Part shown: positions 14,924 to 56,302 of the stretch, in pieces
Layout: each line of letters starts with the position of its first letter
Numbering within the stretch: position 1 is the first letter of the stretch
Assembly: GCA_030867685.1 (NCBI GenBank)
Contig: JAQOWU010000008.1
Coordinates: 496,001-560,000 of the forward strand
Length of the DNA stretch: 64,000 bases
From: Wickerhamiella versatilis
Taxonomy: Eukaryota
Direction: 5' to 3'
Notes under the pieces: generated by a model
Database searches by the model: none
What the model was told of the DNA's origin: nothing
The model's input: the letters and a program-made list of their open reading frames with translations, nothing else
Translations under genes and position numbers: made by a program

Positions 14924-16162
14924 CTACTCGCTGATTTCAAAATCACGAGCATCTTCGGCCATAAATGGCCGCAACTCGATGCCCTCCTCTTTTCCATGGG
15001 TATCTTCAGAATTTTGACGTCTCATGACAACATATGATTCGACAGTAAACAAAGTCATCAGGAAGCAAATTCCCGCAATAGATGTCCCTAGAAGCACATA
15101 GGGCGCGGCCATAATACCCTGGCTATCCAAGAAGAACATGGCTTCTTCTGTAGCGGACATGAAGAGGATACCTGACTCAAATAGAAGGAAAGGAGCTACA
15201 TATTGCCAAGAATGGGGAACAAGTCCTCGGTGTGGGCGATCCTTCATGACAAAACTGACTTCGATAACCCTTGCCAATCCAGCAGCCATGAGCATGACAC
15301 CAAACATGAAGTGGATATTGGTCGAAATAGGGAGATTCTGTACGTGGGTCATCATCGCATATCCGGTAATCATAATAATGATAGCAGGCCAATGATTCCG
15401 CTGTGGACAATCCTTAACACGATTCCACGAGCGATACAAACCAACCATACCACATGCCCACCACACAATACCCATAGACGTATGCTGTACATCACCATGT
15501 CCCCAGCCTTCTTTGCCCCATCGGTGCTCTGTAAATGTATTGATGATGCCCCAAAGCGTTATGACTAGACTGTCGTACCATTCCTGGCTGCGATTTGTCC
15601 GGTCGAGGAAATGCTCACCACAATACAACATAATCAGAAGTATTGCACCATATGTCACAAAAGCTGTACCCATAATGCCATGAGCCAGGCATTGCCCCAA
15701 ATGGTCTTTCTTACACCATTGCAAGAAGCTCACAAAACCGAGTCCACAAAATACCCAGCACACAAGCGGCTGGACAGTGCAAACTGCGATATGCACTTTA
15801 TTTAATATATTTCGTACATTGTACAAAATACCCTTGGGAACATAAATTAAGAGTAAGAAAGACCCACCAACACAAAGAAGGGCCCAGAGAGTTGCAATAT
15901 CAGCCAACCATGGATTGTACTCGGGAACTCCGGTGAAGTGACCCAATATTGTCCCGATAACTGCGAGGACCCCGCCCACACTCATGATCAAAAGATGGCG
16001 CGGGCTTCGCCCTTGTTTGGCGGCGAAACCATAAGGCAAGATGAGTCCAAATGTCAGTGATAAAATAATAAAATGGAAGACTAGAGTTGCTGTGATCTTC
16101 TTATCGATTTCAACGAATTTGGAGTGCTTGTGCTCCATTCCGTTCTCCATTCCGTTCTCCAT
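14924..16162 (-). CDS. YTP1: Ytp1 family multi-pass membrane protein
   Basis: HLGQCLAHGIMG, NTFTEHRWG, DVQHTSMG, FMSATEE motifs; many TM segments. Confidence 0.88.
   Translation of the reverse strand: MENGMENGMEHKHSKFVEIDKKITATLVFHFIILSLTFGLILPYGFAAKQGRSPRHLLIMSVGGVLAVIGTILGHFTGVPEYNPWLADIATLWALLCVGGSFLLLIYVPKGILYNVRNILNKVHIAVCTVQPLVCWVFCGLGFVSFLQWCKKDHLGQCLAHGIMGTAFVTYGAILLIMLYCGEHFLDRTNRSQEWYDSLVITLWGIINTFTEHRWGKEGWGHGDVQHTSMGIVWWACGMVGLYRSWNRVKDCPQRNHWPAIIIMITGYAMMTHVQNLPISTNIHFMFGVMLMAAGLARVIEVSFVMKDRPHRGLVPHSWQYVAPFLLFESGILFMSATEEAMFFLDSQGIMAAPYVLLGTSIAGICFLMTLFTVESYVVMRRQNSEDTHGKEEGIELRPFMAEDARDFEISE
16133..16162. repeat. 12-bp tandem repeat (2.5 copies) at YTP1 start
   Basis: CTCCATTCCGTT x2 + CTCCAT; encodes MENG-MENG-ME on the minus strand. 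Confidence 0.8.
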
Positions 16163-16481
16163 CTTCCAGAGTATGTGTCAGCAGGGGTAGGAATGTGGAT
16201 GTGGTTTGTCGTTTACCTCGGTAAGGGAAACTAGGACTTCATTTTAGTCCGTCTCAGAATCGAAATAAAAAGGGGTTGTTTTCTGTTATGACTTCGTTAT
16301 TTTGGATACCGAATTTTTGGACAATTAGTTCATAACGGAGTAGAATGAGTTAGCTGAAATAATCCAAGTATATCGTCAGGAAATTTAGATGTAGGCTATA
16401 ATGGTTTTCAGTGGCCACTCCGCTTGTCTTCATGAGTTTAATCGGCTTTCACTTTAGAGATTCAGCTGAGTCATAAATGCT

Positions 16482-18860
16482 ATGCGAGGATGCCAGGATC
16501 AGGTATCATGGTCAAAGAAGGGCTTGATAGCGTTCATTTGTAATGGTAAAGCATTCCTGACTATACCATGCTGTCAAGATGGCCATCGCTGGTCGATGGT
16601 ACAACCCATGGAAGTGCCTTTATCTTCTCAGGCGGTACATGTATGTTGGTCCAGTGTGAACTATGACTTGGCAATTGTTGATGCTCTTGGAAGGGTACAG
16701 ATTACGACTATTGGATCAGAAGGGCAATGTAATAACTACATTGTTGGTAGTTTTGCTGCAGATTCTCGATCTCGGCCTTCTGAACTTGATGTTGTGATCG
16801 GTACCTATTGGCTGGGTGTGGATAAGAAAATGGTTATGCCTACACCAGATGGCTCCTCTAGACCTTGGGAACCTAGCAAAGCATATGGTCCCTTCCATCC
16901 TACTCGGAACCGAGGAGCATTATTGGCGGTGAACGGAAATGGAATGATGCGACTTCTTTTCCAATTACCATCCCTCCGTTACCATGAGGTGGACACAATT
17001 CTAAGCGACGTATTCGACGTTCGAAACGTTACTTTTTGTCCTGTTGGGAATAGCCTGCTCGTTGCAGTATACTCAGGCGACCGTCAAATGTCTATTTTTG
17101 AGGTTGTAATAAATTGGCAGAATGAGCAAACAACAATGAAGTCATGGATTGTAGCATCTATTGATAAAATACCTGATCCAAATGTCGTTTCTTTATCTAT
17201 GATGCGCCCACCATTTTCGGAGAACGAGATTATTTTACAAGTAATCTGTGTGGATACTTCTTACCGATACAAAATAAATAACAAAAAAGTAAGCCTTCAC
17301 TCTGCATTCGTGGAGCTTTCTACGACATGTGAGACGGCGCCTTCTATTCAAGAATGGACTATAGAGCCTGCCGGGTCTGTGACCGGAAGCTCAAAGGTGA
17401 AGGCTTTTTACGCTTTGGATCTTTTCACTTTAACAGTTTATGTGGATGGAACAACTTCTGTGGAGTGCCTTGTTCAAGGGCTTTCATCCTTTGCGGACCA
17501 TGGATTAGGCTTTTCTAGAAAGGACCTTCAATCTTCTGCGCTTTGCTTCTCACCAGCGGGCTGTGCTGCTTGTTATCTTGATGATGATGGGAAACCTCAA
17601 ATTTCTCTGGTTAGTCCAGTTAATGAAGCGGGACAGAATTTGCATAAAGTCGCGACTGTCTTAGCGACATATTACGCCTTTACCGTTTTTAATTCTATAC
17701 AATCATCGGATGATGTAGTAGCAGTATGTTGGAGACTGATACGAAGCCAAAAAAATGAGAAGAGCTCACAAATGTTCTCTAATATGCTGGCAGCAGAGAC
17801 GCAGCGGTTACTGAATGTTTCGTTTGCAGCACCAGTAGATTCTAGGCATATTGACCTTGCAATTATTATTCCTTCTCCTCTTCAGAAATTGCTGGCATTT
17901 CAGACGATAATGGGTACATCCGAAGGATGGAGCCGCACATCAGGCGGAACACTTTCCCTAGCTGTTTTGAACCTCCAAATGGCAGCGGTAAGTGCTACAT
18001 GGACTTTGAAAAAAGTCATGATAAAGCAGCCAGTTCCGCCAAGGGGGGAAATAGCTTTGCGCTGCTTTCATGTGTCCAACATGTTTGGGCAAGTTCGCTG
18101 GGTTTCTGATCTTGTAGCTCGGATATCTCAAGAGTTATACAGTGCCAGTGTTGCCTTTGATTCAACATCTGGAGGCCAAACGAAAAACTCAGCCCAGCAT
18201 TTATTAGGAGACGAGCCAAATGTTCTACTCTCGTTATGCTTTGCTAGCATTACCAGATTTCTGCTCAAATATGCGCTTAGTGGTATTCGGTCCCTGAGTT
18301 ATGCAATAAGAAGTATAGCGGATGTTGAAGCTCAACTCGGACTAGCCGCAGAGGAGTGTATCGCTGCACAAACCAAGAAAAGATTTGAGACTATTCTTAA
18401 GGCAGTGCCCGTTAGTGTTGAGAAGTTCGAGAGGGTATTGAAAGAATTTGACACAATAATTTTACAACATTTTACCAAGCAGCATATCAACGATACAGAC
18501 CGTCAAGCCATTGATGCGGAACTCGTGCGAAATGCTAAATGTCCTTCCGTGTTGTTACCCATGTGTGATTCACTGGTGCAAGCCTTTAGGACTAACGTTC
18601 TCGGAGGAGAGAAAGTGGATCTTGCAAAACTGTACTTCTACGACACTAATTGGTTGCATATAGATGAGGCCACTCCCTCGTTCGACGTTGATGGTATCCG
18701 GAAACGACTTTTGCCTGGCAAAGGTAGCCTGAGGTGTAGCAGGTGCGGTATGAAGACAATACATGAGAGTCCAAAATTGCAGAACATACCCCACTGGACT
18801 GTACTTTTCCAGCGACAATGTGTCTGTGGTGGTACATGGATCAAAAACATAGCATCATAG
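16482..18860 (+). CDS. SIN4: Mediator tail subunit Med16
   Basis: SWSKKGLIA start, GPFHP, LQKLL, and C-terminal DGIRK..LRCSRCG..W..QRQCVCGGTW Zn-ribbon typical of fungal Med16. Confidence 0.88.
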   Translation: MRGCQDQVSWSKKGLIAFICNGKAFLTIPCCQDGHRWSMVQPMEVPLSSQAVHVCWSSVNYDLAIVDALGRVQITTIGSEGQCNNYIVGSFAADSRSRPSELDVVIGTYWLGVDKKMVMPTPDGSSRPWEPSKAYGPFHPTRNRGALLAVNGNGMMRLLFQLPSLRYHEVDTILSDVFDVRNVTFCPVGNSLLVAVYSGDRQMSIFEVVINWQNEQTTMKSWIVASIDKIPDPNVVSLSMMRPPFSENEIILQVICVDTSYRYKINNKKVSLHSAFVELSTTCETAPSIQEWTIEPAGSVTGSSKVKAFYALDLFTLTVYVDGTTSVECLVQGLSSFADHGLGFSRKDLQSSALCFSPAGCAACYLDDDGKPQISLVSPVNEAGQNLHKVATVLATYYAFTVFNSIQSSDDVVAVCWRLIRSQKNEKSSQMFSNMLAAETQRLLNVSFAAPVDSRHIDLAIIIPSPLQKLLAFQTIMGTSEGWSRTSGGTLSLAVLNLQMAAVSATWTLKKVMIKQPVPPRGEIALRCFHVSNMFGQVRWVSDLVARISQELYSASVAFDSTSGGQTKNSAQHLLGDEPNVLLSLCFASITRFLLKYALSGIRSLSYAIRSIADVEAQLGLAAEECIAAQTKKRFETILKAVPVSVEKFERVLKEFDTIILQHFTKQHINDTDRQAIDAELVRNAKCPSVLLPMCDSLVQAFRTNVLGGEKVDLAKLYFYDTNWLHIDEATPSFDVDGIRKRLLPGKGSLRCSRCGMKTIHESPKLQNIPHWTVLFQRQCVCGGTWIKNIAS

Positions 18861-18886
18861 ATGAGAATAGCCTACTGTCTACATCA

Positions 18887-20191
18887 CTAATCTAAAGAAG
18901 ACTTCCTTGAGAGCAAAGCCTCCTCTAAATCTTGGATTTCCTGTTGTCGTGCAATTTCAGGCAATCTTCTATATAGCTTGGCTTGTCCAAAATCTGCAAG
19001 ACGAACAACACCCGAGTTGTCAACATAGAAGCTTTCGAGTGAGATAGATCCATGCATCAGTCCTGCTGCATTGACTGCAGACACAACTCGCCTCATATGC
19101 CGCGAAATGTGGGGTGTAATATCATCTGCGGTCATGCGACGTCCAAAGGGCTCTAGTGCTAGGACTTGCACCCCACCTTGGAGATGACCGTAAAATATAC
19201 GGCGAGGTACCAATATAGGTGGCTTTTGTGAAGCTAGATATTCATATACAGAGGCCTCTTTGCGCAGATGCTCGTTGTCGCCTTGTGAGATTTTGAATAC
19301 GGCTGGTTCAGAAGCTTGACATCGATTCATAGTTATCGTTACTTGGCCATCTAAGTCCCAGCCAGCATTTGCAGGGGCGACTTTGTCAAAATACAGACGA
19401 AAAGAGCGCTTGCTCATTTGATCCGCAACCCACCACTTGATTCTTCCAGAGATACCAGCTTCATAGCTACTAAGCGGCTGAATATCTGGTTCTGGAAGAG
19501 TCTCAACAGCGACATTTAAACCTTCATTTTGGAAAAAGGGTAGCTCGAATACTGCTTCCAAACATACCGCAAGGAATACTAAGCCCAGGTCACGAGAAGC
19601 GATCGGGTTCGAAATCCTTAGTTCAAGACCGCGACTACCAGAGCTGATAGAGACGAAGCGAGCAAATGAAGGAGAGGCAATGAGACCCAATGGGCAAGCA
19701 TTAAGAAGCAGGGTCCCACATAAACTTTGTAACGTGCTGTCACACCTAGCGTGGTCTAACAGTTCTGACCATAGAGCCAAACTAACCTCAGCATCTGATA
19801 CTTCTCGGCAGAGAAATAACGGACGGCCACTTGTACTAGCGCGCAGTATGAAATCTGAATGTCCAAGAAGCTTTTCATCATCATAAAAAAAACAGGCTTC
19901 TATGCCGTTTTCTTCAAACATCGGTTCAATGATGATCTGAGCGACCTCCTTTGGATTGCGAATTTTAATATCGGTCTTCTTGGAATCATCTATCCTAGAC
20001 AAGTTTCTCCTGACCATAAAATCGAACTTATCCCAGGACGATATCACGCTGAAGTTTGACGGTGGAACAGAACGCAGATGATAATATTGCGCAGGGTCTA
20101 ATGGTTTCGGTGCACCAAGCGACCTCGTACTCGTAGCATCAACTAGCCTTGGACTCAACGTGGGCATCGTCGACTGGAAAGTTGAAGTCAT
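18887..20191 (-). CDS. Uncharacterised protein: degenerate REase-like domain plus C-terminal atypical kinase-like domain
   Basis: 434-aa ORF; VFKI..EASVYEYL..VP..YG..LALEPFG..MHGSIS..VRLADFGQAK kinase-like pattern. Confidence 0.7.
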   Translation of the reverse strand: MTSTFQSTMPTLSPRLVDATSTRSLGAPKPLDPAQYYHLRSVPPSNFSVISSWDKFDFMVRRNLSRIDDSKKTDIKIRNPKEVAQIIIEPMFEENGIEACFFYDDEKLLGHSDFILRASTSGRPLFLCREVSDAEVSLALWSELLDHARCDSTLQSLCGTLLLNACPLGLIASPSFARFVSISSGSRGLELRISNPIASRDLGLVFLAVCLEAVFELPFFQNEGLNVAVETLPEPDIQPLSSYEAGISGRIKWWVADQMSKRSFRLYFDKVAPANAGWDLDGQVTITMNRCQASEPAVFKISQGDNEHLRKEASVYEYLASQKPPILVPRRIFYGHLQGGVQVLALEPFGRRMTADDITPHISRHMRRVVSAVNAAGLMHGSISLESFYVDNSGVVRLADFGQAKLYRRLPEIARQQEIQDLEEALLSRKSSLD

Positions 20192-20255
20192 TACGAATTT
20201 TTTTTGATTTGAATCACAATCTTAGAGCTGCCATAGTTGGCAAGCTCAACTATAC

Positions 20256-20963
20256 TTACTTAAAAGGGTTGGCACACTTACGGTATTCCGCTTGACCTGT
20301 AATAGGGTCTATTACTTGCTGCCAGTCTATTGGGACAAGTTGTGTACCGGTGTGAGGATTCTGGGCAAACAGCACTCCCAAGTCATTTTTTGATGTCGTC
20401 AAGTAATAATGCTGGCCATCGCCAAGAGATGAAACATTGGCTCGTATAATGTCTCCTGGCTGGAATTGATCTTGGACTACGATTTTTTCACGTTCTGTTG
20501 CACGGATATCTTGGACACGAATTACTCCACCATAACCTTCACCAACCTCTGAGAGCTCAGCTCCACCTAATCCCGATGGCAAATGTACACTTCCATAAGG
20601 GGTAAGACCAACACCAGTATCCCCAGATATGTTTCCCCGATTCTCAACAGCTATTATCGATACTGTTACTTGCTGCGCATTTACACGCAACACCTGAGCA
20701 TATACGATGTCACCAATCTGTGGTAATTGGGACTCGCTTCTTCTTGAGTTGTTTTGGGAAACTTGCTGCTGAATATAAGGATTCTGGAATGCGTTTTGGA
20801 CATTCAACTTTGTAGAACCATCACCACAGCTCTCTGCCTGCAGCCGACCTAACAAGGTAGCTGTTAAATTGCCATCAGCTTTTTCAACACCTATTCCCGG
20901 GGTGTATTGCTTATCAGATGTTGACACAATAGGTTGACCAGGCACCACATATCCTGGAAGCAT
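20256..20963 (-). CDS. CSL4: Exosome cap subunit Csl4
   Basis: VVPGQ, LPQIGDIV, GVIRVQDIRATE, FQPGDIIRANVSSLGD..YYLTT..DLGV, EYRKCANP. Confidence 0.95.
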   Translation of the reverse strand: MLPGYVVPGQPIVSTSDKQYTPGIGVEKADGNLTATLLGRLQAESCGDGSTKLNVQNAFQNPYIQQQVSQNNSRRSESQLPQIGDIVYAQVLRVNAQQVTVSIIAVENRGNISGDTGVGLTPYGSVHLPSGLGGAELSEVGEGYGGVIRVQDIRATEREKIVVQDQFQPGDIIRANVSSLGDGQHYYLTTSKNDLGVLFAQNPHTGTQLVPIDWQQVIDPITGQAEYRKCANPFK

Positions 20964-21046
20964 GACTAAATTATAATTGACATCTTTCCATTATACCTTG
21001 AAGATTAAAAATCACTACATAAGTATGCTATATATTTTTGTACATT

Positions 21047-23002
21047 TCAGAAGAAGTGTGTGTTATCCTTGGAACTAGCATGAATAGGCATGCTTGATTT
21101 GTATGAATTAAGTTCTTGTTTGATCTGTTGTGCGAGCTGTGGTGTCAGACGATTACAAGTAGCTGGCTCAGGTCGTCGATCATATTCAGACGGTGAATAC
21201 GTATCATATACCACAATTTGCGATGTAAACTTTACCGCATGACAATTCGATTCATGCTTTGGATCTCTTTGACTGGTGCTAGACTTCAAAGAACTCTTGG
21301 AATCAGACTTGTCCATAACGGCTTGTTCGCTATTCGGTGGTTTTGATTCATCAAAGTCAAAATCAGGTGAAGCTGGTACAACCTCTTCATTCGCAACTTT
21401 TTCTTCATCCTTTTTATGATGGTCTTTATGGCTGAGTCGCCGCTCTAAGCTTTCCGTGTATTCGATAGAGGACAAAATAGCCCCAACGTCATGTGCATCA
21501 AGGTTGCGAGGAAATACGTCGCCAGCTGCAGGTCTTTCTTCATCGGTTTCTCGCAACGAACATGTATCTTCATCGCTATGATGTGATGAGTCTGGGTTCC
21601 ACTTCTCGGACAGCTTATGCGACAGATCGGAGAGCGAGGTAATGCTTCTACGGTTCCGCTGGGATGTCTTTGAGCTTTTGTGAGGAGGAAAACCAGGGTT
21701 ATTAGAATTTATAGGGGGTGCCTCAGGCATTGTAACCTGTGGATCTTTCTCTTTTCCATTAAAAAGTGTTTTTATCTTCGAGCGCAGTGAACCTAAAGAC
21801 TTGGACTTCCGCAAAGGAGCTCTTGTGATCGGGTCTTCTGTTACAGAACTACTGCTTTCCTCCTTGACTTCCTGGTAGGCAGGCTCGCTCTGTCTTGTGG
21901 ATGTTTTTGTCGAGGGTGCTTTAGACCTGGCAACTCGCGATCTGATCGGCTTCTCGTCAATACTTGTACCTGCCACATGATCTGGAATGGTGCAATCATC
22001 ATATTTCTTGGGCGATTTATCTGTTGGAAAGCTAAAGTTACGCCGTGACTTTTCGCTTGCTGGCTCATTCGCTTCTTGCATTGAAACCGGAACACCCCGA
22101 ACCAGATTGAAACTCTCAGAGGAATTATGCAACTCAGCAAGATGATGCGGCATTTGCTGCAAGTCTTTGATACTCTCCGCGACTACACTTCGGCGCAAGA
22201 GACCCGGTGGGAGCACGGGCTCATAGCTTCTTACATCATACCCGGTTGATCTGAAATATTCCGAAACTCTTCCACGAGAAGCCTCTGGAAATGAGTTAAC
22301 TTGCTCAGATGTTGTAGAATTCTGTGGCCCTTGGTTGCATTTCCCCGGAGATTGCTCCGTCTGATTTGATGAGTATTGTATTGATGAATCTGCTTGTTTT
22401 ATTGTAGGGTCTGATTGCTTGGCGAGTGTTCTTTGTTGATTCAATGTTCCTGCTTGGTCTTGAGAGGACCAGAAATTATCCTGAATCGCTTCCCTATTTT
22501 TAGCTGGCTGCAACTTTTCATTGCTAGGCTTCTCTTCGCCCACAGATGAGATCGATGAGGCGCGTGTTTTTGTTGATGAGGTATCGATGTCCAGGCTTGG
22601 AATACTACCGGTACTTCCAATTGTACTAATAGAATGGCGTGAACGATGGTAGCGATGTGGCACGGTATTCAAAGTGCTATGAGTGCTGTTTTCGTAGTTG
22701 GCTTCCTGATGCGGCGACTGCATTCTGGCGGACTCTGAACACTTCACAATTTCCTTAATTTGTACCTTACGCGGCATTGTTGTTATTGTCGCACGGCGAT
22801 ACTGAGAACTTGACATTTGACTTTGTTTCATGCTCTGAACTCCGAGGTCAGTTCCGTAAATACTCTGTCTTCCATATGCCTTGCTGTATGCCATTGTCAT
22901 GGCATCCTGGCTGCTAGGCTCTCTCTGGATTCCCAAATATAAATGAGGCGATGTTCTGTCGTAGGCCTGGGAAGCAGTTGACGAGTAGCCACTAAGAAAC
23001 AT
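21047..23002 (-). CDS. BNI4: Bni4-like PP1(Glc7)-targeting septin/bud-neck protein
   Basis: C-terminal VKF..IVVYDTYSPSEYDRRPEPATCNRLTPQLAQQIKQELNSYK..THFF domain; the rest is low-complexity. Start uncertain (first ATG 23002). Confidence 0.75.
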   Translation of the reverse strand: MFLSGYSSTASQAYDRTSPHLYLGIQREPSSQDAMTMAYSKAYGRQSIYGTDLGVQSMKQSQMSSSQYRRATITTMPRKVQIKEIVKCSESARMQSPHQEANYENSTHSTLNTVPHRYHRSRHSISTIGSTGSIPSLDIDTSSTKTRASSISSVGEEKPSNEKLQPAKNREAIQDNFWSSQDQAGTLNQQRTLAKQSDPTIKQADSSIQYSSNQTEQSPGKCNQGPQNSTTSEQVNSFPEASRGRVSEYFRSTGYDVRSYEPVLPPGLLRRSVVAESIKDLQQMPHHLAELHNSSESFNLVRGVPVSMQEANEPASEKSRRNFSFPTDKSPKKYDDCTIPDHVAGTSIDEKPIRSRVARSKAPSTKTSTRQSEPAYQEVKEESSSSVTEDPITRAPLRKSKSLGSLRSKIKTLFNGKEKDPQVTMPEAPPINSNNPGFPPHKSSKTSQRNRRSITSLSDLSHKLSEKWNPDSSHHSDEDTCSLRETDEERPAAGDVFPRNLDAHDVGAILSSIEYTESLERRLSHKDHHKKDEEKVANEEVVPASPDFDFDESKPPNSEQAVMDKSDSKSSLKSSTSQRDPKHESNCHAVKFTSQIVVYDTYSPSEYDRRPEPATCNRLTPQLAQQIKQELNSYKSSMPIHASSKDNTHFF

Positions 23003-53620: not shown

Positions 53621-56302
53621 ATGACTAGTGCGGTACCATCGATAGAGCCTAGTGGAAGCAAAGTGGACATGTCAGAATCCGCCATCGCCGCGTATAATCG
53701 TCGGCGGATGCGCGGCGAGTTCGGTACGCTGCCGTCAACCCCTTCGGTAGGGATAAGCACTGGAAATGTGCAGCCCTTGGCGAAGGCTGCTGCGGCGTCC
53801 CAGCTCGGTCCAAAGCTATGGAAACCTGAGAGAACTAGCGAGGCGCATAAGGCATCAACTCTTGCCTCCAGCGCCGGTGCGGCAGCCCTTCAGCACCCGA
53901 CCCATGTCGAGTCCTCCGTGGGCTTACCCGAAACATCGGAGAAGAGCGCCTACCGTGCAGCATTGAATTCAATGCAAACCACTGGTGAGGAATATGGCCA
54001 GCGATATGCATTGGACGCTTATGAATGGGGCTCTCGAACTGGTTCTGGCAGTTTCGGCCATAGTGCTGCCACGCAGTCTGTAAACAATTCCCGTAATCAG
54101 ACCCTTAAGGGGACGGATAGCCTTCGCAGGCCTCCGGCAGATCTTCCAATTGACATTTCTAAGGTGCTCGTTGCTGCTAATGAACGTGCTCAACATCGAC
54201 TCGCAACGGCTCAGAACCACCTTCCTGCAGGATTTGGTACGATGACTCGAGAGCAAGAGCTCGAGCGTCGCCAGCAGGTGCTTTCTCTGGTGGCCATCGC
54301 CAATCGCAATGTGCAGAATGAGCTTGCTTCAGTTGATAGAGATGTATACTCTCGTGACATATTCGGCAGTCCCGAATATCAGAAAATTGCTTGGGATATT
54401 GCAACTGGCCAAAGCTCTCAGCGTATGCAGTACCACGGTAAACTGAACCTCGGTGGTGGCAAATATATGACATCTGATGAAGTTGAAGAAATTGCTCGTC
54501 GTAATGTACAGCCTGTCCTGGATAAGGTTGCTCTAGTGGCTGAGAAGAAGCGTGTTGCTGATGCTGAGGCTGAAGCACAGGCTGAAGCCGAGAAGAAGGC
54601 TGCAGCTGAGAGGAAGGAAGAGGAGAAGAGACGCCAGGCCCAGGAGAAGGAGGAAAATCGCCTCCGCAAAGAGAAGGAGCAGGCACAGGCTGAAGCAGAG
54701 AAGGCGAAGCAGAAGCGCAAGGCGGAACGCGCGAAGAGCTCAGCTCCCGAGGGTAGTGTCCAGTGGCACAAGAATCGGGTTGAAGAGGCCAAGGATGATG
54801 TCAAGGAAGCCAAGGCTAATCGTGAAGATGCTGAGGAGACAGCGAGACGAGCTCACTCATACGAGGATGATGCTAAGAAGGAACTCGAGGATATCGCTGC
54901 CAAGCACCATGCTCTTAAGAAGGACTATTTCGATCGGTCCGAGGAGATCGAAAAGAAGGCTGCTGAGACCGACCCTGATAGCGTTGAAACTGCAAGCATG
55001 TTCCAGTTGAAGACTACCCGTGATCGTGTTAAGGCCGAGACGAAGGAGTCGAAATCTCGTCGTGTAGCTGCCGAGGAAAGAGTTGAAAAGACTCATGCAG
55101 CAGCGGAAGAAGCTGATGCAGCAGCGGCAGCAGCGGCTCAACGTCATCGCGAACTTAAGAAAGAGTATTTCGAGCTTAAGAAGAAGTATGAGGAAGCCGA
55201 AGAGCAGTTCAGAAAGGATGAGGAAGAACGTCTTAAGAAAGAGGCTGAAGAGCGTGCGCAACGTGAGGCCGAAGAGGCGGAACGTAAGGCCAAGGAAGAG
55301 GAAGAGGCAAAGGCCAGAGCGGCTTCAGACGCTAAGGCATCTGCCGCTGCGGGCGCCGCCACTTCAACTGCGGGACCATCATCTCCCAAACTGGAGAAGT
55401 CTAAGTCAGTTAGCAAGAAAGCTGATGTGAGTGAGCCAAAGGGTTCGAAGAGTCCAAAGAGTCCGAAGAGCCCGAAGAGTCCTGTTAGCCCCATGAGCCC
55501 AGCTTTCTCGGACGACGGTTATGTTGCCCCTCCTAAGAGTCCTTTGCTTTCAATGGGTGATGCAAAGTCTGGACCCATTCTCGCGGGTTATAAGTCTCCT
55601 GTCAAGCCAGCAAAGAAGAAGGACGAGGGCGATGCCGAAAAGAAGGTTGAGAAGAAGACTGAGGAGAAGGTAGAGAAGCCTGAGGAGAAGGCTGCTGAGA
55701 AGGCTGAGAAACCGGAAGAGAAGGCTGCTGAGAAGGTTGAGAAACCGGAAGAGAAGGCTGCCGAGAAGGTTGAGAAACCGGAAGAGAAGGCTGCTGAGAA
55801 GGTTGAGAAACCGGAAGAGAAGGCTGCCGAGAAGGTTGAGAAACCGGAAGAGAAGGCTGCCGGGAAGGTTGAGAAACCTGAGGAGAAGGCTGCCGAGAAG
55901 GTTGAGGAGCCAGAAGAGAAGGCTGCCGAGAAGGTGGAGGAACCGGAAGAGAAGGAGGAGAAGCCGGAAAAGTTCGTACCTTCTAGCACCGGTGCTGCGG
56001 CTGCGACTGCTGCTGCGGCTGTTGGAGCGTCGAGTGTTGAAGAGGACACCAAGGCGCCCCCGCTTGGTGATCCTATAAACGTGAGCAGTGCCCCCGCTGA
56101 TGTCGAAACCCCTGCCGCCGTATCTCATGTCGATGAAAACGGTGATGGAACCGTTGGGTTGCCGCCTTCTGGAAAGGCACCCGCGGTTTCTAACGAAGTC
56201 CCTCTGGGCTCAACCCCCAAGGGCGAATTTTCTGGATTTGACTCCAGTAACGTGGTGGAGCCAGGGAGGGAGAGTCTGTTTAAGGAGGACATTGATTCGT
56301 AA
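53621..56302 (+). CDS. EIS1: Eisosome protein, Eis1-like
   Basis: GKLNLGGGKYMTSDEVEEIARRNVQPVLD motif, long E/K/A coiled coil, C-terminal SLFKEDI. First ATG is 53621. Confidence 0.72.
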   Translation: MTSAVPSIEPSGSKVDMSESAIAAYNRRRMRGEFGTLPSTPSVGISTGNVQPLAKAAAASQLGPKLWKPERTSEAHKASTLASSAGAAALQHPTHVESSVGLPETSEKSAYRAALNSMQTTGEEYGQRYALDAYEWGSRTGSGSFGHSAATQSVNNSRNQTLKGTDSLRRPPADLPIDISKVLVAANERAQHRLATAQNHLPAGFGTMTREQELERRQQVLSLVAIANRNVQNELASVDRDVYSRDIFGSPEYQKIAWDIATGQSSQRMQYHGKLNLGGGKYMTSDEVEEIARRNVQPVLDKVALVAEKKRVADAEAEAQAEAEKKAAAERKEEEKRRQAQEKEENRLRKEKEQAQAEAEKAKQKRKAERAKSSAPEGSVQWHKNRVEEAKDDVKEAKANREDAEETARRAHSYEDDAKKELEDIAAKHHALKKDYFDRSEEIEKKAAETDPDSVETASMFQLKTTRDRVKAETKESKSRRVAAEERVEKTHAAAEEADAAAAAAAQRHRELKKEYFELKKKYEEAEEQFRKDEEERLKKEAEERAQREAEEAERKAKEEEEAKARAASDAKASAAAGAATSTAGPSSPKLEKSKSVSKKADVSEPKGSKSPKSPKSPKSPVSPMSPAFSDDGYVAPPKSPLLSMGDAKSGPILAGYKSPVKPAKKKDEGDAEKKVEKKTEEKVEKPEEKAAEKAEKPEEKAAEKVEKPEEKAAEKVEKPEEKAAEKVEKPEEKAAEKVEKPEEKAAGKVEKPEEKAAEKVEEPEEKAAEKVEEPEEKEEKPEKFVPSSTGAAAATAAAAVGASSVEEDTKAPPLGDPINVSSAPADVETPAAVSHVDENGDGTVGLPPSGKAPAVSNEVPLGSTPKGEFSGFDSSNVVEPGRESLFKEDIDS
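55673..55954 (+). repeat. Coding 33-bp minisatellite (EKPEEKAAEKV, about 8.5 units)
   Basis: GAGAAACCGGAAGAGAAGGCTGCYGAGAAGGTT repeated in tandem. Confidence 0.95.

Follow-up and report, generated by a model that had tools for sequence, protein, structure and literature searches.

Gene X of the yeast Wickerhamiella versatilis encodes a protein in which an REase-like domain is followed by a minimal kinase fold, and is probably, though far from certainly, an anciently domesticated gene whose product is now a double pseudo-enzyme acting as an interaction module or adaptor. By profile comparison, both halves are homologous to those of chytrid nuclease-kinase proteins (P0036 and P0040) that are apparently active. 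The adaptor role is a candidate function, deduced from sequence.

Locus, expression and domain layout

The window, that is, the whole stretch of 64,000 nucleotides analysed here, contains gene X as an intact ORF between MED16 and CSL4, as the first-pass annotation had reported, and all motifs quoted in that annotation are present.

18887..20191, minus strand: gene X, intact, intronless ORF of 434 aa (protein P0001)
16482..18860, plus strand: MED16/SIN4, convergent neighbour of gene X (sequence annotation)
20256..20963, minus strand: CSL4, tandem neighbour upstream of gene X (sequence annotation)

Translation of gene X perhaps begins at Met9 (20167), the position at which P0003, an orthologue of 68% identity, starts. 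From YTP1 through MED16/SIN4, gene X and CSL4 to a BNI4-like ORF (window 14924-23002), gene order seems to resemble that of the YNL237W-YNL232W block of S. cerevisiae; the name of the BNI4-like neighbour is tentative and lacks Pfam support. Gene X is the sole match in the W. versatilis genome searched (9.88 Mb, 8 contigs) and is, within this genome, single-copy. Its GC content of 0.458 and GC3 of 0.40 are inside the range of seven neighbouring genes, and therefore give no pointer to recent transfer. Elsewhere in the window, an 893-aa ORF at 53621-56302 contains, around 54000-56000, a stretch of strong skew and higher GC.

Expression was assessed from two raw-read RNA runs of a single sample that bears this species' label, made from an unstranded library. 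Depth over most of gene X is about 100-150-fold, lower toward the 3' end; this is close to MED16 and somewhat below CSL4, with less than 20 in bins beyond these three genes, and no splice joints occur in reads across gene X. Depth does not dip over the 64-bp gap between CSL4 and gene X (window 20164-20324), as overlapping transcripts or read-through would produce. A dicistronic CSL4–gene X transcript may be considered from this pattern, but intergenic gaps of 23-100 bp are frequent in the window and gene X has its own copy, with one mismatch, of an element found at the start of CSL4. Reads also accumulate just within the annotated starts of CSL4 and MED16. A Yap-type element lies over the first ATG of both CSL4 (exact, 20961-20969) and gene X (one mismatch, 20189-20197) at the same offset; the gene X copy is weak, because one-mismatch matches are common.

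The domain layout of the protein, with counts that refer to the family of 20 proteins defined below, is as follows.

19994..20131, minus strand: short head at the N-terminus, roughly aa 21-66; its W..F motif also occurs in active relatives
19538..19963, minus strand: REase-like domain, aa 77-218, from predicted structure and profile comparison
19853..19855, minus strand: D113, the retained Asp of the PD motif (14/20 members)
19796..19810, minus strand: aa 128-132, position of ExK in active relatives; no D/E-x-K in any register in 20/20 members
19712..19726, minus strand: aa 156-160, position of QxxxY in active relatives; Q and Y both gone here
19412..19498, minus strand: family-specific conserved segment, aa 232-260
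18890..19528, minus strand: minimal atypical-kinase fold, aa 222-434

Trp53 of the head is found in 19 of 20 family members and in all five non-gap others. The stretch ahead of the REase-like domain has just about 75 residues, modelled as short helices and a strand; the protein has no ubiquitin-like or coiled-coil header, and no header family matched at E<=1. The REase-like domain is modelled as a helix (80-94), three strands (99-102, 114-118, 124-130), a helix (152-163), three further strands (168-172, 176-185, 188-193) and a final helix (199-215). An early fold from a three-sequence alignment was discarded (pLDDT 34), and a homodimer prediction score of 0.00 counts neither way.

Homology and extent of the family

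Pfam models give kinase hints below threshold on P0001 (E 0.14-0.33). The REase-like plus kinase architecture proposed in the first-pass annotation is nevertheless supported by hhalign, by HMM searches with controls and by the order of secondary structure elements. With hhalign, the whole protein matches outside relatives with intact PD..ExK..QxxxY and HxD..N..DFG motifs at 99.9%, and the N-domain alone matches PD..ExK..QxxxY-bearing domains at 96.5-97.6%; in an HMM test of the N-domain the scores are 21-34 bits, versus at most 3.8 in 238 controls. The REase fold that had been expected of the N-domain fits its predicted order of helix, three strands, helix and strands, which is that of the REase core, but no solved REase was matched directly. 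The N-domain profile matched none of the PDB sequences, and HSDR_N_2 gave a weak match under the cut-off (E 0.016) in one of five members. In structure searches, made with the full two-domain model, the kinase took all listed matches, and no solved two-domain REase+kinase structure was matched.

Word-based homologue searches returned only 2 and 3 proteins; it was a full HMMER search, with 42 matches at E<=0.001, that yielded the family. Gene X and 19 full-length relatives sharing family motifs were picked as the family set (n=20) before any tree was built; 15 further matches served as outside relatives, and seven short kinase-only fragments were excluded from the trees. P0019 was dropped as a member, being a false match via cystatin repeats. 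The named members, Sugiyamaella lignohabitans AWJ20_2619, Starmerella bacillaris DASB73_012490 and Geotrichum candidum CDO52617, are all Dipodascomycetes, from two families of Dipodascales, and the remaining members are, to judge from their position in the tree, presumably yeasts of Dipodascomycetes as well. Two outside relatives are named, one from the chytrid Borealophlyctis and one from Entophlyctis, which we take to be a chytrid too.

In the unrooted tree, a branch with support of 95/88 sets the 20 family members apart, and after removal of long branches 17 members again form one clade (SH-aLRT 95). P0045 (465 aa), which is degenerate in both sites and lacks the KWW segment, is placed on a long branch beyond the clade; joining it to the clade was not rejected (p-AU 0.24), and it may be a basal member or a case of independent decay. 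With chytrid P0036 and Sugiyamaella P0013 as queries, gene X is the best match in this genome. Nine other matches of P0036 here cover the kinase part only, and no active paralogue of gene X was found in this genome with P0036, P0013 and gene X itself as queries.

The longest contig recorded for P0003 has the same length as that of the CSL4 homologue P0048 (86,795 bp), and the lengths agree likewise for P0007 and the CSL4 homologue P0050 (6,319 bp). This makes 2 of 18 relatives with a contig figure, set against 27 CSL4 homologues of other species, most of them too distant or on different contigs; to judge from these records, a family member seems to adjoin or share a contig with CSL4 in two other species. 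The Sugiyamaella protein is absent from the matches of the Csl4 search, and two metagenome scans found no locus of a relative. We consider it very probable that the gene X family is vertically inherited and orthologous across Dipodascomycetes. The domestication claimed in the first-pass annotation agrees with the single copy in this genome, the single clade, the three Dipodascomycetes genera and the apparent CSL4 linkage.

The family evolves fast: identity is 25-30% between genera, and the family stands at 30% where CSL4 holds 52%. Low-complexity insertions, some 350-450 residues long, separate the two domains in P0029 and P0037 (Geotrichum and one other member; 906 and 936 aa). Several Geotrichum records are annotated shorter, without the N-domain; these may be annotation artefacts, because members of 848-906 aa are present in the same cluster.

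Catalytic decay and newly conserved residues

Both active sites are degenerate throughout the family, as had been suggested for gene X, and none of the 20 members is intact in either. A D/E-x-K motif near the third strand of the nuclease is missing from all 20 in any register, versus clear presence in five of the seven outside relatives examined, and the Q and the Y of QxxxY remain in 4/20 each. A single Glu-to-Gly change as the nuclease killer was dropped, the register being ambiguous. Glu130 is shared with P0003 but is not conserved in the family, and one alignment sets it on the catalytic Glu; given this ambiguity of register, a residual metal site is therefore possible in this species and its sister species.

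The full kinase set (β3 K, HxD, N and DFG) likewise occurs in no family member, versus 12 of 15 outside relatives. Counted singly, the β3 Lys is kept in 13 of the 20, the αC Glu in 14, the HxD Asp in 9, the Asn in 8 and the DFG Asp in 6. The losses are lineage-specific, with HGD changed to HGS in this lineage and different breaks in other members; the catalytic-loop Asp is replaced in P0003 also. The gene X protein retains K300, E312 and D400-F401-G402, and has S382 for the catalytic-loop Asp and S387 for the Asn. The loss of ExK, the change of HGD to HGS and the replacement of the catalytic Asn by Ser, all noted at first pass, hold good. Judged by its residues, this is a kinase fold without a catalytic base, i.e., a pseudokinase, and both halves of the protein are most likely catalytically inactive. 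In six of the 20 members, Sugiyamaella included, K, E, HxD and N are all present and the DFG Asp is the only loss. These six could have weak kinase activity; kinases that work without the DFG Asp are known. Because they retain most kinase residues, loss of activity may not extend to the whole family. The automatic label of one family record is that of an active kinase.

A different set of residues has been fixed in the family: P235 in all 20 members, G249 and A313 in 19, W253 and W254 in 18, D357 in 16 and K252 in 14. K252, W253 and D357 are found in none of the 12-13 non-gap outside relatives. The best-kept positions, P235, G249, A313 and E418 (19-20 of 20 each), are non-catalytic. This pattern bears on the possibility that the protein is still an enzyme with a rebuilt site: it might rely on D113, perhaps with E130, as a variant metal-dependent nuclease or an enzyme of nucleic-acid ends, or else transfer phosphate slowly or without Mg. 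Examples of kinase folds that carry out non-standard chemistry exist, and such a reading would make use of the D113 kept in 14 of 20 members, of the alignable E130 shared with P0003, of K300, E312 and DFG in gene X and of the HxD..N kept by six members; however, E130 is not family-conserved, the nuclease Lys and QxxxY are gone, and no kinase catalytic residue is universal in the way that the best-kept positions are. We regard a rebuilt enzyme as unlikely.

Distinctly unlikely, too, is a dispensable relic under weak selection that drifts toward loss. The long branches and the low identity between genera would suit it, as would the Geotrichum records without the N-domain and a contig from run X20, labelled as another organism, which has two 1-base deletions in gene X and none in its MED16 part. 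These deletions, which lie in homopolymer runs of one contig at 19885 (codon 103, A8 run) and 19538 (codon 218, G3 run), may represent a broken allele or an error, and the short records may be artefacts. Against drift stand full-length two-domain ORFs in 20 lineages, identity to the sister-species protein P0003 of 68%, vs 76% for CSL4, 41 identities in the 50 positions of the linker, and normal expression.

Known nuclease-kinase systems and a proposed history

The CR module joins an REase-type domain and, after it, a kinase domain within a single chain (PMC5289972, a review that summarises Zhang et al. 2016). In the known class, killing is done by the nuclease, and regulation or protection by the kinase (PMC5289972, PMC6660238, PMC9972908, PMC12693581). 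CRN8 of Phytophthora infestans forms dimers, and its kinase-dead version suppresses the wild-type protein (PMC3426532). Gene X shares with these Crinkler/RHS proteins the order of an REase-type domain and a kinase, and its relatives P0036 and P0040 are homologous over both. It differs, in a comparison made via other proteins, in lacking the delivery header, ExK, the catalytic Asp and the Asn; moreover, it stands as a single copy amid core genes, in place of an expanded family, and yeasts share it through common descent. The label "Crinkler-like" is thus apt for the REase+kinase homology but not for a Crinkler effector proper.

The Spok proteins of Podospora and Fusarium also join a PD-(D/E)xK nuclease with QxxxY to a minimal kinase (PMC6660238, PMC9972908, PMC12693581). 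In ESM Atlas features, SPOK2_N-bearing clusters are among the near matches, at 0.94-0.95 for the whole protein and 0.91 for the N-half. Compared with the Spok domain map in PMC6660238, gene X has no coiled coil, domain 1 or cysteine cluster (one Cys in aa 219-300). It also lacks the Lys needed for killing and the Asp needed for resistance, and in this genome nothing suggests that it is mobile or has spread in copy number. In Spok proteins the catalytic Asp accounts for most of the resistance (PMC6660238), antidote-only Spok alleles exist (PMC12693581), and the mechanism by which the kinase restrains the nuclease in this class is given as unsolved in PMC9972908 and PMC12693581.

Uncharacterised proteins of Pandoravirus with DUF5898 (PF19250) are the only Foldseek matches high in the viral list that span both domains, over 472 and 486 columns with TM-scores of 0.45 and 0.40, at 12-14% identity and rmsd above 10 A. 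The PF19250 profile had no match in this genome, but neither had its control. Pseudokinase adaptors such as that of RNase L, VRK3, STRAD and Pan3 derive from ordinary protein kinases and are not fused to an REase fold; their likeness to gene X is a functional analogy only. Bud32, an identity that the first-pass annotation had named as refuting its reading, was ruled out: the real Bud32 is at G000:C8:1244491 (163.8 bits, over the cut-off), and gene X, which scores 12 bits on the NCBIfam Bud32 model, is not among the 54 matches of the Bud32 model in the genome. FunK1 (PF17667) has no match in P0001, and one member, P0020, reaches 15.3 bits versus a cut-off of 24.1. By its sequence features, then, gene X is neither a Crinkler effector, having no header, nor Spok nor Bud32. 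The REase+kinase architecture itself is already known. We found no description in the literature of a yeast family that is degenerate in both domains and inherited as a single gene, although the text or supplements of the 2016 survey by Zhang et al., summarised in PMC5289972, may list such proteins; the accessible part of PMC10799480 makes no mention of this yeast family.

Least probable of the alternatives is that the dead protein is a dominant-negative decoy or antidote that neutralises active REase-kinase toxins or drivers entering the lineage: the behaviour of kinase-dead CRN8 and the antidote-only Spok alleles speak for it, but the decoy proposed at first pass is left with no active target or paralogue found in this genome, the Asp that Spok resistance mostly needs is absent from the gene X protein, and one copy at a fixed locus with a single origin would fit housekeeping better than an arms race.

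The history behind such a double pseudo-enzyme would have run as follows. Gene X would descend from a header-less REase+kinase protein of the Crinkler/RHS and Spok class and be an old gene of Dipodascomycetes. Loss of the nuclease motif across the family would have left the protein no longer toxic, and the kinase, no longer needed as an antidote, would then have decayed in lineage-dependent ways; we infer this order, disarming first and a relaxed need for the antidote afterwards, because ExK is lost in all members and kinase loss is varied. Both folds would have been retained and new residues fixed, giving a non-catalytic intracellular interaction module. The pseudokinase may still hold ATP via K300, E312 and D400 and form one rigid unit with the dead nuclease fold, and this unit may bind a host protein or nucleic acid via the G-x-x-K-W-W segment and the conserved C-terminal helix. 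The fuller version, in which an ancestor of Dipodascomycetes domesticated a selfish nuclease-kinase toxin and gave it a new, needed role in which nucleotide governs its binding of DNA, RNA or a host complex, we put forward tentatively, as a possibility somewhat short of even.

The nuclease-kinase class is known for host-cell toxins and meiotic drivers, and the fate of such proteins after fixation is an open question. A non-toxic, well-modelled member, single-copy in this genome, in cultivable yeasts (Starmerella, Sugiyamaella and Geotrichum) opens both kinase restraint and this fate to testing, and a solved structure of gene X would be the first for the two-domain unit. The family accounts for a record titled "Hypothetical protein, no similarity" (that of G. 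candidum CDO52617) in these genomes, and corrects the active-kinase label of another. If the reading is true, the yeasts of the class share a gene family that has gone undescribed, and one that is a rare example of a recruited toxin-antidote protein with both activities off. Our results suggest that the descendant of a DNA-cutting toxin has been kept as an ordinary expressed gene while the catalytic residues of both its halves were worn away, a selfish weapon turned into a component of the cell.
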